DNA from: Campylobacterota bacterium
Lineage (GTDB): Bacteria > Campylobacterota > Campylobacteria > Campylobacterales > Sulfurovaceae
DNA length: 64,000 nucleotides
Assembly (NCBI GenBank): GCA_034721895.1
Contig: JAYEND010000099.1
Span: forward strand, 521-64,520
Reading direction: 5' to 3'
Shown here: one piece after another, positions 6,923-60,507 of the stretch
Position numbering within the stretch: position 1 is the first letter of the stretch
How the letters are laid out: each line of letters opens with the position of its first letter
Notes under the pieces: model-generated
What the model was told of the DNA's origin: nothing
The model's input: the letters and a program-made list of their open reading frames with translations, nothing else
Databases searched by the model: none
Position numbers and translations under genes: made by a program

Positions 6923-6937
6923 AATGGTCAACCTATT

Positions 6938-7060
6938 CGTGTTACGTGTTACGTGTTACGTGTTACGATGGAAGTGGAGAGTTTACTCCCACCCAATCAA
7001 AGTATTGCCAGGCAATATCCACCAACACTCTTCACTCTTCACTCTTCACTCTTCACTTCA
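6938..7060 (+). repeat. composite intergenic element, copy 1: (CGTGTTA)x4.3, hairpin, (CACTCTT)x4 plus CACTTCA
   Basis: Left array at 6938-6967. Hairpin TATTGCC-a-GGCAATA at 7003-7017. Right array at 7026-7060. Same architecture as the copies at 22689, 23339 and 24457. Confidence 0.8.
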
Positions 7061-7084
7061 TAAAAACCTCCAAAGGAGTTTTTT

Positions 7085-8719
7085 ATGATCGACGTTCTTA
7101 TCATCGGCTCCGGTGGTGCAGGTCTCACCGCCGCACTCTCTGCCAAAGCCAAAGGGGCAAAAGTCCTCGTCGCAGGCAAATTCCACCCCACCAATTCTCA
7201 GACTTCCATGGCTCAGGGAGGGATCAATGCAGCCCTTGGGAATGTTGGAGAAGACTCAATAGAGAATCATATCGCCGATACCATGAAATCCTCCAGAAAC
7301 CTCTGTGATGAAACAATGGTTCGTACAATGTGCGAAAACGCGCCCGAAGCGATCAGCTGGCTTGAAGCGATCGGTGTACCTTTCAGTCGGACAGAAGAGG
7401 CGAAGATCGCGCAGCGGCAGCTGGGCGGTACCCGCAATAAGCGTGCCTGCTACAGTCAGGACTATACCGGCTTAAAAATTCTTCATACACTCTATGACAC
7501 CTGTCTCAAAGAGGGGATCGAATTTCTGGATGAGCACTACTTTCTCAACCTCATCACACAGGAGCAGGAAAATCCTAAACTTGATCCGCTGATCAAGGGA
7601 GCGACACTTCTGGAGATCGTGTCAGGAGAGGTCAAACAGATCGATGCCAAATCAGTCATCATCGCGACAGGCGGCTACTCCTCGATCTATCACGGCTTTA
7701 CGACCAATGCCTTTGGATCGACCGGTGACGGGATCTCGGCCGTGATCCGTGCAGGCGGGTATATCTCCGATATCGAGTTTGTCCAGTTCCACCCTACCGC
7801 GCTCAAAGGCTCTGCGATCCTCATCTCCGAGAGTGCCAGAGGAGAAGGAGGCTACCTGCTCAACAGCAAAGGAGAACGTTTCGTCGATGAGCTGCAACCC
7901 AGAGATATCGTCGCACGGGCCATTTACGAACAGATCGGCAATGGCGAGGAAGTTTTTCTGGATATCAGACATCTGGGAGAAGAGAAACTGATGGAGCTTC
8001 TCCCTCAGGAGGTGCATCTCTGCAAACTACATGAGCATGTCGATCCGGCCACAGAACTTATCCCCATCAAACCGGTAGCACACTATTCGATGGGCGGTAT
8101 CGATGTCAAACGCTCTCTGGAAGCAAGAGGGATCAAAGGATGTTTCGCAACAGGTGAATGCAGCAATGCGAAAGTCCACGGTGCCAACAGGCTGGGCGGC
8201 AACTCTCTTCTGGAACTGATTACTTTCGGAAAACTCGCCGGTGAAAATGCAACTGCCTATGCTACAGAAGCTGGCAACACCCCTGCAGACGATACACAGC
8301 TGAACTCTGACCGAAACTTTATCAATGGGATCTTCCATTTTACCAATCAGATCAATTTCTACGAGAAGCGTGACTTTATAGGAAAGATCTTTTATCATAA
8401 TGCCGGTATCGTCCGCAGTAAAAGCTCTCTCACTGCTGTTCTTGCCGCGATCCGCCAGATACAAAAAGAGCTCCCTTTCATGGGATTGGGAGATAAAAGC
8501 AGAGAGAATAACACTAACCTTGTCGATTTTATCGAATTTGGGAATGCTTTGGAACTCAGCGAAGTCCTGCTGGTCGGTGCCATCAGTCGCAACGAAAGTC
8601 GCGGCGCACACTACAGAGAAGATTTTCCCGAGCAGAGCGATGAACGTTATGGTGCCCATACGATCTTCTGGAAAGAGGATGGTGTCCTCTGTGCCGATTT
8701 TGAAAGGAGGTATGTATGA
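7085..8719 (+). CDS. succinate dehydrogenase/fumarate reductase flavoprotein subunit (non-classical)
   Basis: 544 aa with GSGGAGLTAAL, QFHPTA, AHYSMGG and HGANRLGGNSL. The covalent-FAD motif RSHTxxAQGG reads NSQTSMAQGG here (His replaced by Gln). Confidence 0.9.
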   Translation: MIDVLIIGSGGAGLTAALSAKAKGAKVLVAGKFHPTNSQTSMAQGGINAALGNVGEDSIENHIADTMKSSRNLCDETMVRTMCENAPEAISWLEAIGVPFSRTEEAKIAQRQLGGTRNKRACYSQDYTGLKILHTLYDTCLKEGIEFLDEHYFLNLITQEQENPKLDPLIKGATLLEIVSGEVKQIDAKSVIIATGGYSSIYHGFTTNAFGSTGDGISAVIRAGGYISDIEFVQFHPTALKGSAILISESARGEGGYLLNSKGERFVDELQPRDIVARAIYEQIGNGEEVFLDIRHLGEEKLMELLPQEVHLCKLHEHVDPATELIPIKPVAHYSMGGIDVKRSLEARGIKGCFATGECSNAKVHGANRLGGNSLLELITFGKLAGENATAYATEAGNTPADDTQLNSDRNFINGIFHFTNQINFYEKRDFIGKIFYHNAGIVRSKSSLTAVLAAIRQIQKELPFMGLGDKSRENNTNLVDFIEFGNALELSEVLLVGAISRNESRGAHYREDFPEQSDERYGAHTIFWKEDGVLCADFERRYV

Positions 8720-17120: not shown

Positions 17121-17290
17121 ACAGGCAGCCTCCAATCTATTCTCGGCTCACCCGACTCAGTTCGGTATTTTTGATACCATGCCTTCTTCACTATTAGATA
17201 TTTCTTTATTTGTTTTATTAATTTTAATATATTATTTATTATTCGATAAATAATAGATAGAATGTAATAATATCAAAAAAAGGAGCTATT

Positions 17291-21599: not shown

Positions 21600-22688
21600 A
21601 TGCCTGATTCGCCTGATTCGATTGTACTGCTCGGCTCAACCGGTTCAATAGGGGTCAATACCCTGGAGATCGCTTCCCGGTATAAAATTCCCATCGAAGC
21701 GCTTGTTGCCGGGAATAATATTGATCTACTCAACAAACAGATTAAAAAATACCATCCCCGTTATGTCGCTATTGCCAATGAAATACACAGGAGCCGTATC
21801 GATCATACCCATGTTTACTGCAGAGAACAGGGAATTCTGGAACTTCTGGAACAAACCCAAAGTCCGACTGTTGTCAACGCACTGGTAGGCTATGCCGGAC
21901 TGGCCCCAACCCTGAAATCCATCGAACTTGGTAAAAGAGTCGCACTTGCCAACAAAGAATCTCTGGTCGTTGGCGGGGAATTTATCGATATAGGCAAAAT
22001 TACCCCGATTGACAGTGAACACTTCGGCCTCTGGTATCTAATGAACGAGAGACCTATCAATAAACTCTATATTACTGCAAGCGGCGGTGCTTTCCGTGAC
22101 TGGAAGAGAGAAAAGATCGCTGATGCAACCTTCGCTGATGCGCTCAAACACCCCAACTGGTCAATGGGCAACAAGATCACTATCGACTCTGCAACGATGA
22201 CCAATAAACTTTTCGAACTTCTCGAAGCCAAGTGGCTCTTTGATACCAGCAATATTGATGCAGTCATCGAACGCAAATCGATCGTTCATGCCCTGGCAGA
22301 ATTCAAAGACGGCTCTACCACTGCCCACTTTGCCGGTGTGGACATGAAACTTCCTATCGCCTTTGCCTTGAGAGGAAAAGTAGAGGAGGAGATTCTTCCC
22401 CCTCTTGACCTCCTTGAGATTGGAAACCTTCAATTCGAGTCCATTTCAAAAGAAAAATATCCTATTTGGGAGATCAAAGAACATTTGCTCAAAAACCCCC
22501 ATTTGGGTGTTATCCTCAATGCCGCAAATGAAGAAGCCATCAAATCCTTCGAATCGGGAAAAAGCACTTTCTTCGGCATGGCGGATATGGTTCTCGATGC
22601 CTACAAAGAATTTGACTCTGTACATGCAAAAGACATAGGCGAAATCATAGAGATAGACAAAGAGGTGAGAAGCTATGTCAATCAATAA
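21600..22688 (+). CDS. dxr: 1-deoxy-D-xylulose-5-phosphate reductoisomerase
   Basis: 362 aa with LGSTGSIGVNTL, LANKESLV, DSEH and NWSMGNKITIDSATMTNK. Confidence 0.95.
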   Translation: MPDSPDSIVLLGSTGSIGVNTLEIASRYKIPIEALVAGNNIDLLNKQIKKYHPRYVAIANEIHRSRIDHTHVYCREQGILELLEQTQSPTVVNALVGYAGLAPTLKSIELGKRVALANKESLVVGGEFIDIGKITPIDSEHFGLWYLMNERPINKLYITASGGAFRDWKREKIADATFADALKHPNWSMGNKITIDSATMTNKLFELLEAKWLFDTSNIDAVIERKSIVHALAEFKDGSTTAHFAGVDMKLPIAFALRGKVEEEILPPLDLLEIGNLQFESISKEKYPIWEIKEHLLKNPHLGVILNAANEEAIKSFESGKSTFFGMADMVLDAYKEFDSVHAKDIGEIIEIDKEVRSYVNQ

Positions 22689-22785
22689 GTGTTCAGCGTT
22701 CAGCGTTCAGCGTTTGAGAAACAATAAAAGTATTGCAGCGCAATACATACCAACACTATTCACTATTCACTATTCACTATTCACT
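22689..22785 (+). repeat. composite intergenic element, copy 2: (GYGTTCA)x3.7, hairpin, (CACTATT)x4.6
   Basis: Left array at 22689-22714. Box AACAATAAAAG. Hairpin TATTGC-agc-GCAATA at 22731-22745. Linker CATACCAA. Right array at 22754-22785. Confidence 0.85.
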
Positions 22786-22820
22786 CAAGATAAGGACTTT
22801 CAATGAAAGTCCTTATCTTG
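22786..22820 (+). promoter_or_regulatory. perfect 15-bp hairpin sequestering SD and start codon of the downstream hydrolase gene
   Basis: CAAGATAAGGACTTT (22786-22800) pairs base-for-base with AAAGTCCTTATCTTG (22806-22820). The loop CAATG contains ATG 22803. Confidence 0.7.
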
Positions 22821-23336
22821 CACGGCTGGGGCGGAAGTGATACCCCGCACTGGCAGGCTGAACTTGCCTGCACACTGGCCAAAGACTATGGAACCGTCAG
22901 CTTTCCGCTGCTGGACAATTGCCACTTCCCAAGCAAAAACAGATGGGTACGGCAGGTTAAAGAAATTTTGGAAGATTTTAAACCCGATACAGTTGTCTGC
23001 CACTCCCTTGCCAACACCCTTTGGTTTTGGCTTTGCCAACAGGAGATGAGAACTGTTGAGAAATTGATTATGGTTTCTCCGCCAAGTCTTACAACGAACG
23101 TCGATACGATTAAAACATTTTTCCCTTGCCCCATGCCACAAATACTTTGCGCAAAAGAAACCATCATGATCGTTTCAGATAATGACCCCTATATTACGAT
23201 CAACGAAGCACAAAAACTCTCAAAGCATTATCATGCACCGCTTACGATCATTGAAAATGCAGGACACATCAATGCTGACAGCGGGTATGGAAAATGGGAA
23301 TATATCGAAAAACTCATTATAAAGAATAAGTCTTGA
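22803..23336 (+). CDS. alpha/beta serine hydrolase, RBBP9/YdeN family
   Basis: 177 aa with MKVLILHGWGGSDTPHWQ, nucleophile elbow VCHSLA, SDNDPY and AGHIN (Ser-Asp-His visible). Confidence 0.75.
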   Translation: MKVLILHGWGGSDTPHWQAELACTLAKDYGTVSFPLLDNCHFPSKNRWVRQVKEILEDFKPDTVVCHSLANTLWFWLCQQEMRTVEKLIMVSPPSLTTNVDTIKTFFPCPMPQILCAKETIMIVSDNDPYITINEAQKLSKHYHAPLTIIENAGHINADSGYGKWEYIEKLIIKNKS

Positions 23337-23338
23337 AA

Positions 23339-23410
23339 GCATTCAGCATTCAGCGTTCAGCGTTCAGAATAGAAGCATTGCAAAGCAATGCCTACCGACA
23401 CTATTCACTT
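23339..23410 (+). repeat. composite intergenic element, copy 3: (GCRTTCA)x4, hairpin, (CACTATT)x1.6
   Basis: Left array at 23339-23367. Hairpin GCATTGC-aaa-GCAATGC at 23375-23391. Linker CTACCGA. Right array at 23399-23410. Confidence 0.85.
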
Positions 23411-23411
23411 T

Positions 23412-23435
23412 CTGAGGATCAAAAATGATCCTCAG
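23412..23435 (+). promoter_or_regulatory. perfect 9-bp hairpin sequestering SD and start codon of tsaD
   Basis: CTGAGGATC (23412-20) / GATCCTCAG (23427-35). The loop AAAAAT overlaps ATG 23425. The SD GAGGA lies in the 5' arm and codons 1-4 lie in the 3' arm. Confidence 0.65.
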
Positions 23436-24444
23436 TATCGAATCAAGCTGTGACGACAGCTCTATCGCCATTACAGAAATCGCAACCAAAAAAGTTCTCT
23501 TCCACAAAAAGATTTCCCAGGAGGCAGAGCACTCCTGCTACGGCGGCGTGGTACCGGAACTGGCCAGCAGACTTCATGCGGTTGCCCTGCCTGAGATCCT
23601 AAAAGAGACGGAACCCTTCTTTTCACATCTCAAAGCCATTGCTGTCACAAACCAGCCTGGGCTTGGCGTCACACTGATGGAAGGGATCGCTATGGCAAAA
23701 ACCCTTGCTGTGCTGCTTGATATTCCACTGATAGCCGTCAATCACCTCAAAGCCCATATCTACTCTCTCTTTATAGAAAAAGAAGCCATTACACCCCTTC
23801 TTGTACTGCTGATCTCAGGAGGCCATACGCAGATCATCCGTGTCGAAAGTTTCGAAAAGATGGAGATCCTGGCCACCAGCATGGATGACAGCGTTGGAGA
23901 AAGCTTTGACAAATGTGCCAAGATGATGGGATTGGGCTACCCGGGTGGACCGGTCATAGAATCATTGGCACTACGGGGAGATGAAAATCGCTTCGACCTC
24001 CCCGTTCCTCTGCGCAACTCACCGCTGATCGCTTTCTCTCTCTCCGGCCTCAAAAATGCGGTACGCTTGCAAATCGAAAAATGCAAAACCTCCAACCAGG
24101 GAGAACTCACTGTACAGGATCAGTGCGATATTGCTGCCTCCTTCCAGAAAGCAGTTAAACTTCATCTTCTGCAAAAGAGTAAAAAGATCTTTGCAAAGGA
24201 GCCGATCAAGGAGTTTGCCATCGTCGGCGGTGCCAGTGCAAACTTCTATATCAGGGATGCCTATGATGCTCTCTGTAAACAGTATGGCAAAACCCTTCAT
24301 ACCACAGCTCTGGAATACTGTTCAGACAACGCCGCCATGGTTGGACGCTATGCCATAGAAGCCTATAAACGAGATGATTTTATCGACCCTGACAAAATCG
24401 ACATCATCAGCAATAAAAAACAGCAAAGCGGCACTCTTTTATAG
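23425..24444 (+). CDS. tsaD: tRNA N6-adenosine threonylcarbamoyltransferase TsaD
   Basis: 339 aa with [16 protein letters not shown]..., [21 protein letters not shown] and GGASAN. Confidence 0.95.
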
Positions 24445-24456
24445 CCCCCTCAACCC

Positions 24457-26896
<2,440 letters not shown>

Positions 26897-29630: not shown

Positions 29631-29658
29631 GGTCGAATGGAGCAGGCTCCATTCGACC
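29631..29658. terminator. bidirectional stem-loop between convergent DUF2853 gene and fusA
   Basis: GGTCGAATGGAGC / GCTCCATTCGACC, an 11-13 bp near-perfect stem. Confidence 0.55.
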
Positions 29659-60106: not shown

Positions 60107-60204
60107 GATATATTGCCTTAAAATAGATATTGAATTGTATCAAAGTTGTGGTTAAAGAGGATTATACGATGTGTTACAGACAGAGGAGAAAGCTCTCCTC
60201 TGTC

Positions 60205-60507
60205 TTAATTCTTCTTGACTACTTTCTTTTTCGCTTTTGACTTGCTCTTGGGCTTATTCGCTTTTTTCACATCTTTTTTGACATTATCTGCCAGTGATGG
60301 ACCTACACCATTGACTCTCTGAAAATCTTCAAAAGATTTGAATTGACCCTTTTTCCGCTCCTTGATAATTGCTTCAGCTTTCGCTTCACCAATACCATTA
60401 ATCTCCATCAACTCCTGCTTGTCTGCCTTGTTTAACTGGTTGAGGCTCATACCGAAAACACTGGTCGTTGCCAAAATCAGAAAACCTGTAATGATCTTTT
60501 TGAACAT
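60205..60507 (-). CDS. comEA: ComEA-family helix-hairpin-helix DNA-binding protein
   Basis: 100 aa from Met 60507. Signal/TM, then LMEINGIGEAKAEAII...FQRVNGVGPSLADNV (two HhH motifs) and a Lys-rich tail. Confidence 0.75.
   Translation of the reverse strand: MFKKIITGFLILATTSVFGMSLNQLNKADKQELMEINGIGEAKAEAIIKERKKGQFKSFEDFQRVNGVGPSLADNVKKDVKKANKPKSKSKAKKKVVKKN

Follow-up and report, generated by a model that had tools for sequence, protein, structure and literature searches.

How can tsaD be translated if its Shine-Dalgarno (SD) sequence and its start codon are both closed within a perfect hairpin? The question is raised by positions 23412 to 23435 of a 64,000 nt stretch of DNA from a member of the Campylobacterota (the whole analysed stretch is referred to as the window, and positions are those of the window unless a locus is named). 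A stable stem over SD and AUG should prevent de novo binding of the 30S subunit. Since TsaD is essential in most bacteria, a blocked ribosome binding site (RBS) at this gene needs a delivery route. Here we describe a short reading frame that leads from the upstream gene through a repeat element onto the tsaD start codon and that may provide such a route.

The start-codon hairpin of tsaD

The hairpin is composed of the 5′ arm CTGAGGATCA (23412-23421), the loop AAAA (23422-23425) and the 3′ arm TGATCCTCAG (23426-23435), all on the + strand. The 5′ arm contains the tsaD SD (GAGGA, 23414-18), the last loop base is the A of the tsaD ATG, and the TG of this codon together with codons 2-4 (I L S) forms the 3′ arm. 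The gene itself (PF00814; 23425-24444, + strand, 339 codons) starts with ATGA. The sequence-only reading had described a perfect 9-bp stem between CTGAGGATC (23412-20) and GATCCTCAG (23427-35) with the loop AAAAAT. The pairing is indeed perfect, but one additional A-T pair extends the stem to 10 bp (23412-23421 with 23426-23435) and shortens the loop to AAAA; the SD within the 5′ arm and ATG 23425 at the loop/stem junction had been placed correctly. For the hairpin by itself a folding energy of −14.7 kcal/mol was calculated; a stem of this stability over SD and AUG should not allow a free 30S subunit to start at tsaD. In a 180 nt context the predicted probability of the SD being unpaired was about 0. 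The 71 nt context of the hairpin folded with −22.6 kcal/mol (z = −4.9), and none of 200 shuffled sequences was equally stable.

Hairpins of this kind are rare in the window. Six perfect hairpins (stem of 10 bp or more, loop of 3-8 nt) were found in the 64 kb, versus about 0.5 in shuffled sequences, and two of the six are start-codon hairpins behind copies of the same repeat element (E2 and E3, see below). The other four (377-406, 17230-17255, 29631-29658 and 60178-60205) are probably terminators, and none of them lies at a predicted gene start. Among the 56 gene starts predicted in the window (the gene calling in the start-site scans was crude), the longest stems spanning the start were those of a hydrolase gene at 22803 (16 bp) and of tsaD (10 bp), followed by stems of 6 bp. 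Both of the two longest follow heptamer elements. This agrees with the earlier statements that the tsaD hairpin shares its design with a hairpin at the hydrolase start (22786-22820, + strand, 16 bp, between dxr and the hydrolase gene), and that eleven other + strand starts show no pairing between SD and downstream codons.

The heptamer element and the relay frame

Directly upstream of the hairpin lies the repeat element E3 (23338-23411, + strand). It starts with a left heptamer array (AGCATTC/AGCGTTC, 4.3 units, 23338-23367), which is followed by an A-rich box (AATAGAA, 23368-23374), the conserved core palindrome GCATTGC-AAA-GCAATGC (23375-23391), and a conserved spacer CTACCGACA with a G-free remnant of the right array, CTATTCACTTT, of about 1.5 units (spacer and remnant, 23392-23411). 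The hairpin begins directly 3′ of this remnant (23401-11), in the position reported by the sequence-only reading, but what was called an array there comprises only about 1.5 units. Three further copies in the same orientation, E1 (6930-7058), E2 (22689-22785) and E4 (24458-24516, + strand, before gyrB), are present in the window. Common to the four copies is a unit of AAAAG(C/T)ATTGC-N3-GCAAT(G/A)C, then CnnCC(A/G)(A/C)CA, then a G-free tandem heptamer array built of the words CTATTCA, CTCTTCA or CTCCTCA. When read on the minus strand, the core (22730-22746; the other cores alike) and the A-rich box give a hairpin followed by TTTTAT(TGTT), which resembles a terminator for antisense transcription.

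To see how far the element extends beyond the window, species-representative genomes were scanned for its pattern. Of the 120 loci retrieved, about two thirds came from unrelated phyla, matched by chance and were set aside, whereas about 36 are true copies. Altogether, about 40 copies are counted in Sulfurovum, Nitratifractor and MAGs of other Campylobacterales. The type seen in the window, with a GTTCAGC left array, also occurs in loci L070 and L092. Many copies carry an inverted second unit on the left side and are thus composite and REPIN- or MITE-like. In L105 (1397-1700) two units stand head-to-head, 58 nt apart, with the arrays pointing outward, and the unit of palindrome and array is therefore the building block of the composite. 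No description of the element was found in the literature searched on translational coupling with REP or MITE elements and on heptamers of Sulfurovum.

The window belongs to a Sulfurovum of a brine metagenome, and its sequence was matched in four metagenome runs, all of them DNA. In the source metagenome runs the depth of the CTATTCA array word was about 160 times that of the flanks at 22738-22806, and array word depth was about 30 times that of the flanks at 24463-24531; the arrays are therefore highly repeated in the community. Assembly contigs of the source metagenome end at heptamer arrays. The four runs held no indel or copy-number variants of E3 or of the hairpin. Slippage of the heptamers as a frame switch is unsupported, and it is also unlikely for an essential gene.

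The upstream gene encodes a YdeN-like serine hydrolase (PF06821; 22803-23336, + strand). Its stop codon TGA (23334-36) overlaps the first codon of a relay reading frame of 31 codons (23333-23428, + strand), which runs from TTG 23333 (TTGA overlap) to TGA 23426-28 (ATGA overlap with tsaD). Only this +1 frame is open in the spacer between the two genes, the other two being closed. It spans the whole 5′ arm of the hairpin, and its stop lies inside the 3′ arm. No SD could be recognised for TTG 23333, so that ribosome flux into the frame could be low.

Two other copies in the window are arranged in the same way. The relay ORF of E1 (6924-7088, + strand) leads from ATG 6924 (TAAAATG) to TGA 7086-88 on the ATG (7085) of an sdhA-like gene, and a bulged hairpin (7058-7088, + strand) covers SD and ATG of this gene. 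The relay ORF of E2 between dxr and the hydrolase gene (22675-22806, + strand) begins at the ancestral hydrolase ATG, which in element-free relatives is the hydrolase's own start codon, 17 nt inside dxr. In the region of E4 (24458-24581), left array, relay frame and RBS hairpin are all missing. The gyrB start lies 65 nt beyond E4, and the AT-rich spacer (TTACCATTTTTTAGGTAAAATAAAAGG...) is conserved in the element-free relatives L201 and L204 and probably holds gyrB's own promoter. E4 is thus an internal negative control for relay and hairpin.

Beyond these loci, in other gene contexts, a frame through core and array stops within −1 to +8 of the downstream start in 13 of 16 cases; one of these contexts, an M16 peptidase, is an in-frame fusion. 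ATGA was found in 8 of 13 gene contexts. Second codons that start with A give a background which this count does not clearly exceed, and ATGA enrichment alone was not used as evidence. We also considered real small proteins as products of the relay frames. The peptides are not conserved and gave no Pfam matches, and the frame in which the conserved core is read varies from copy to copy (that of E2 differs from that of E1 and E3), so this idea was rejected. Two loci (L004, 6336-6400, and L070, 6131-6200) carry a nested insert of about 36 nt, TACCCCAAGGGCACTTGTC(C/A)CTTCG(G)TCGGGCGCAC, in the right array, through which the relay frame remains open. In L205 (1209-1424) the public gene call turns the relay frame into a 71-aa "gene", and in P0008 and P0009 the public TsaD calls carry N-terminal extensions of 36-50 aa read through the element.

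Insertion at the hydrolase-tsaD junction and the accompanying hairpins

To follow the history of the junction we examined 80 tsaD loci from metagenomes and six from assemblies. The commonest state (20-22 loci) is a hydrolase stop overlapping the tsaD start, ...GGAGAAAAA-ATGA-T..., and the closest relatives of the window (L121, L201-L204) show this direct ATGA overlap. The ATGA start of tsaD is therefore a relic of translational coupling. At overlap-type junctions the tsaD SD lies within the hydrolase reading frame and the region is unstructured (mean minimum free energy (MFE) −4.8 kcal/mol over −35 to +25, n = 20).

An insert between the two genes was found in 27 loci. Seven of these inserts are of the heptamer type (the window, L022, L136, L163, L167, L205 and L206), several are GTAGGG-tagged and REP-like, and a few are short spacers. 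On the TsaD tree at least 4 changes are needed to explain the heptamer-type state, and 6 or more to explain the GTAG-type state. Of 22 distinct inserts 19, of the heptamer as well as the GTAG type, contain one uninterrupted frame that leads from the hydrolase stop to a stop overlapping the tsaD start, versus 5.5 expected from composition-preserving shuffles (P of about 3e-11, Poisson-binomial); orthologous loci are not fully independent in this count, the tree giving at least 10 separate events. Most of the relay frames begin at the relic ATG of the old ATGA, and their stops overlap the tsaD start as ATGA, GTGA, TAATG or TGATG. Insert lengths of 16, 31, 55, 82, 85, 88, 91, 94, 97, 109, 148 and 211 nt each leave a remainder of 1 when divided by 3.

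The GTAGGG-tagged inverted repeats of other Sulfurovum occupy the same junction, about 100 nt upstream of tsaD, in L123, L126-L128, L131, L135, L144, L147, L155-L157, L161, L164 and L166. ATGAT(A) is duplicated at both borders of these inserts, and nearly all of them are bridged by a frame from the old ATGA to a new (A/G)TGA or TAATG. GTAG-type inserts have this relay frame but no dedicated RBS hairpin, so a relay does not need the hairpin. Within the operon, no + strand promoter match was found between dxr and gyrB with the sigma-70 consensus, a weak criterion for Campylobacterota, and no + strand terminator match was found in 22500-24700.

All seven heptamer-type inserts before tsaD are followed by an RBS hairpin, versus none of the 20 orthologues with the ancestral ATGA overlap. 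The seven hairpins all differ in sequence and range from −6.3 to −16.3 kcal/mol. The most stable is that of L022 (13 bp, CATGAAAATCTCC/GGAGATTTTCATG, −16.3 kcal/mol), followed by the window (10 bp, −14.7 kcal/mol), L136 (8 bp with one G.U, −9.3 kcal/mol), L167 (same design as in the window, with four G.U, −7.8 kcal/mol), L163 (−7.3 kcal/mol), and L205 and L206 (−6.3 kcal/mol each).

The association extends to other genes. We compiled 630 distinct SD-bearing starts from Campylobacterota loci, a sample of about 700 kb of Sulfurovum-type DNA rather than a whole genome, and defined as element-adjacent those with a G-free heptamer array within 75 nt of the start. Perfect stems of at least 7 bp over SD or start were present at 9 of 32 element-adjacent starts (28%) versus 15 of 598 others (2.5%), corresponding to an odds ratio of 15 (P = 5e-7). 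The MFE was −12.3 kcal/mol at element-adjacent starts versus −8.9 kcal/mol at the others (P = 2e-4). With an array of only 1.5 units, the tsaD start of the window itself fell into the class of other starts, which makes the contrast conservative. Such hairpins are thus not common at arbitrary starts in this sample, and the view of the sequence-only reading that their link to the element is unlikely to be chance holds both for the orthologues and for the enrichment next to the elements. Almost every copy of the element directly precedes a locus-specific palindrome, including copies that face convergent genes.

The 3′ arm of the tsaD hairpin is invariant at the protein level (first 11 TsaD residues) in the 120 closest homologues, and is for this reason native coding sequence. 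The 5′ arm resembles the native SD region (GAGGATCAAAA in the window versus GAGAAACAAAA in L121), and it seems that a few substitutions perfected a pre-existing GGAG/CTCC quasi-palindrome.

Because the exact tsaD hairpin is limited to one lineage, it has no covariation record of its own, and we turned to the sibling hairpin at the hydrolase start. Here an ancestral quasi-palindrome, GATAAG..CTTATC, has been extended to a 16-bp hairpin, the loop of which contains the new hydrolase ATG. Across seven orthologues 8 of the 16 pairs show compensatory double changes and 93.8% of the cells are paired. None of 500 shuffles matched the observed pairing, and a shift of the partner by 1-3 columns lowers it to 39-55%. 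In several cases a synonymous codon change has its counterpart in the 5′ arm, and between the window and L206 four of five arm changes (in 16 pairs) are compensated. Mismatches in element-linked start stems are G.U in 4 cases and A.C in 1; these small numbers weakly favour sense RNA over DNA as the level at which pairing matters. The arrangement at the dxr-hydrolase junction was compared in the window (22675-22820), L121, L132, L134, L167, L206 and L070; the inserts of L121, L132, L134 and L167 consist only of an array and have no core palindrome.

A possible coupling gate and its alternatives

The reading that we favour, and to which we would give about an even chance, is that free initiation is prevented by the hairpin, and that ribosomes arriving in the relay frame open it and start again at AUGA. 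As an RNA structure, the hairpin would then mark the 3′ border of an intergenic repeat that is translated and behaves like a mycobacterial interspersed repetitive unit (MIRU). In this scheme the element would have inserted into the ancestral overlap (ATGA) of hydrolase stop and tsaD start. The stem would pair the tsaD SD with the UG of AUG and codons 2-4 and thereby exclude free 30S subunits. Ribosomes completing the hydrolase would terminate at UGA, restart on UUG 23333 (UUGA overlap) and pass through the element in the relay frame, 31 codons long and free of stops. Their helicase activity would unwind the tsaD hairpin, they would terminate on UGA 23426-28, which overlaps AUG 23425-27, and tsaD would be initiated either by the same ribosome or by a 30S subunit caught on the SD while it is exposed. 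The insertion would thus leave the coupling of tsaD to the upstream gene intact. What we infer from the sequence is that ribosomes do translate the relay frame, that the stem is formed in the living cell and that expression of tsaD relies on the relay.

Several observations are consistent with such a gate. An element lying in a former stop/start overlap, with a relay frame across it, gives the hairpin a sense. The conserved TsaD N-terminus appears to leave no alternative start, and as judged from the sequence the relay would be the only evident route to tsaD expression. That E4, before a gene which probably has its own promoter, shows neither relay nor hairpin also counts in favour of the coupling gate.

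The most serious alternative, which we regard as rather unlikely, is that the hairpin is a by-product of events at the DNA level, namely templated inverted copying at insertion or a template-switch "correction" of a quasi-palindrome, and has no selected translational role. It would then have been tolerated only because relay-frame ribosomes melt the stem. The physical mechanism is the same as in the coupling gate; the two differ only in whether the hairpin is adaptive. At least four independent heptamer-type insertions at the junction, each with a hairpin, are what copying at insertion would give. The sister lineage of the window (L204) has neither insert nor hairpin, so that the perfect 10-bp stem must have arisen quickly. 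Stems are often perfectly symmetrical around variable centres (murB loci L014, L039 and L118), and the palindromic sequence that extends the ancestral quasi-palindrome at the hydrolase start includes the new ATG. Since copies facing convergent genes adjoin hairpins as well, the association could partly reflect an insertion preference or a DNA-level process. Against a fresh inverted copy, however, the 5′ arm at tsaD looks homologous to the native sequence of L121. The sibling hairpin was retained by compensated changes, wobble G.U is tolerated while A.C is rare, and E4 has no such palindrome; all of this speaks against a mere by-product.

A wider reading, unlikely in our judgement, would make the heptamer-array elements members of a widespread class, not described so far, of insertions that are "translation-transparent", are directed at stop/start overlaps and themselves give rise to the hairpin. 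The G-free and stop-free sense strand may then let the orphaned old start drive the relay frame, an inverted copy or perfected quasi-palindrome of the target may force continued coupling, and the hairpin may be part of the insertion mode and not have evolved locally.

It is improbable that the hairpin acts primarily on the mRNA, either as a 5′ stabiliser of the tsaD cistron after cleavage or as an attenuator or terminator blocked by relay translation. A stabiliser might protect the cistron, for example against RNase J, after a cut within the element. Hairpins 3′ of the array in nearly all copies and in any context could be taken as a sign of such a role, as could the terminator shape (A-run, stem, T-run) of many copies, e.g., AAAACTCCaaaGGAGTTTTTT and CATAAAAAACCCgaaaGGGTTTTTTATG; REPs are known as mRNA stabilisers (PMC3733652). 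The tsaD hairpin is, however, followed by UAUCGAAUC, which has no U-tract, and the G+C-rich stem with U-tract of an intrinsic terminator is not present there (the sequence continues with TATCGAATC); the + strand terminator scan was likewise empty. A stabiliser need not bury SD and AUG, and the relay frame and its exact ending on the start codon would be left unexplained.

A stand-alone translational switch unrelated to the relay frame, i.e., an RNA thermometer or a stem opened by a protein or an sRNA, is very unlikely. As in RNA thermometers, a simple stem-loop closes off SD and AUG, and temperature or salt could vary in the brine or sediment community from which the DNA stems. Against this, the stem is perfect over its 10 bp, with −14.7 kcal/mol, no mismatches and neither a fourU (U4) nor a ROSE motif. 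An Rfam search gave no family, the one sub-threshold sRNA match (over E2, E = 0.18) being disregarded. None of the element-free orthologues has the hairpin, which is therefore no conserved regulator of tsaD. Chance complementarity between the SD (GAGG) and the Ile-Leu codons ATC CTC is hardly credible: the ancestral junction does already pair at about 6 of 8 positions, since GGAG is complementary to CTCC, but 10-bp stems occur at only 2 of 598 non-adjacent starts, one of them this very tsaD, and neither the two best of the 56 window stems, both behind elements, nor the 7/7 versus 0/20 distribution among orthologues would be expected.

The coupling gate has partial precedents. Translational coupling has been explained by RNA unfolding and by termination-reinitiation (models reviewed in PMC12548453). 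Phage f1 genes VII/IX, rpmI-rplT and MS2 coat-lysis resemble the tsaD case in that a hairpin-closed RBS is opened by an upstream ribosome, and a stop/start overlap of 4 nt is common to tsaD and to systems coupled by unfolding or reinitiation (PMC12548453). As in RNA-unfolding coupling, the RBS of tsaD is sequestered (−14.7 kcal/mol) and the upstream frame runs through the structure. Unlike in those systems, the upstream "cistron" would be a throw-away frame in a repeat between two formerly coupled genes. In the synthetic bicistronic design (BCD), a short leader ORF contains the SD of the gene that follows, its stop lies on the start codon of that gene, and ribosome helicase activity removes local structure. 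The tsaD relay likewise has a short leader ORF with the downstream SD and a stop on the start codon. It differs from BCD in being natural, in a leader that would itself be reinitiated from an upstream gene, and in a strong RBS structure, which is not merely avoided.

MIRUs (Supply et al. 1997), as they are outlined in a review (PMC12548453), are mobile repeats that insert at start codons and carry an internal ORF coupled at −4. By this outline MIRU and heptamer element are both short repeats between genes of one operon, both insert at starts or stop/start overlaps, and in both the ORF ends at −4 (ATGA) (PMC12548453). Since this end is coupled to the downstream gene, insertion is nearly harmless. 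Correspondingly, the window holds four copies of a repeated element of about 40-130 bp between co-directional operon genes, and the ORF at tsaD overlaps both the upstream stop (TTGA 23333-36) and the downstream start (ATGA 23425-28). Compared by anatomy alone, the heptamer element differs from MIRUs in its occurrence in Campylobacterota and in its 7-nt arrays, its GCATTGC-N3-GCAATGC palindrome and its G-free right array. The relay peptide is moreover read in different frames in different copies, and the downstream RBS lies systematically in a locus-specific hairpin. To our knowledge, a systematic RBS hairpin has not been described for MIRUs. Relay ORFs in intergenic repeats are thus already known from MIRUs; what is new is the heptamer anatomy and the systematic locus-specific RBS hairpin.

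Two other classes of repeats share traits with the element. GTAG-tagged REP/REPIN elements were reported in Sulfurovum sp. NBC37-1 and, like the heptamer element, are palindromic intergenic repeats, mostly between co-directional or convergent ORFs (PMC3733652). The GTAGGG-type elements even share the hydrolase-tsaD junction in relatives, where a bridging frame is retained too. In contrast to GTAG/CGTC REPs, the heptamer element carries tandem 7-mers and a 7-bp palindrome and has no GTAG or CGTC tag, its core reading AAAAGCATTGC...GCAATGCCTACC. The intergenic heptamer repeats of Xanthomonas and Nostoc (GGGNATC) are G-rich, form G-quadruplexes and are transcribed; alike are the 7-nt units, about four copies, and the location between aligned ORFs near starts or stops (PMC4692102). 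The sense array of the heptamer element differs in being G-free and stop-free, and is combined with palindrome, relay frame and RBS hairpin.

For annotation, our data mean that relay frames at present appear as hypothetical genes of 30-70 aa or falsely lengthen TsaD at its N-terminus (L205, P0008, P0009). One junction that was invaded repeatedly and independently provides a clean comparative system for testing models of unfolding and reinitiation. If the coupling gate is true, the synthetic "bicistronic design" would have a counterpart in nature, and the MIRU principle a second case, unrelated to the first. The old start codon would have been recycled into a relay frame, and the downstream RBS would be locked and opened only by arriving ribosomes. 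The case would then show how repeats, selfish or born of slippage, can be accommodated by a compact bacterial operon in the stop/start overlaps of essential genes.
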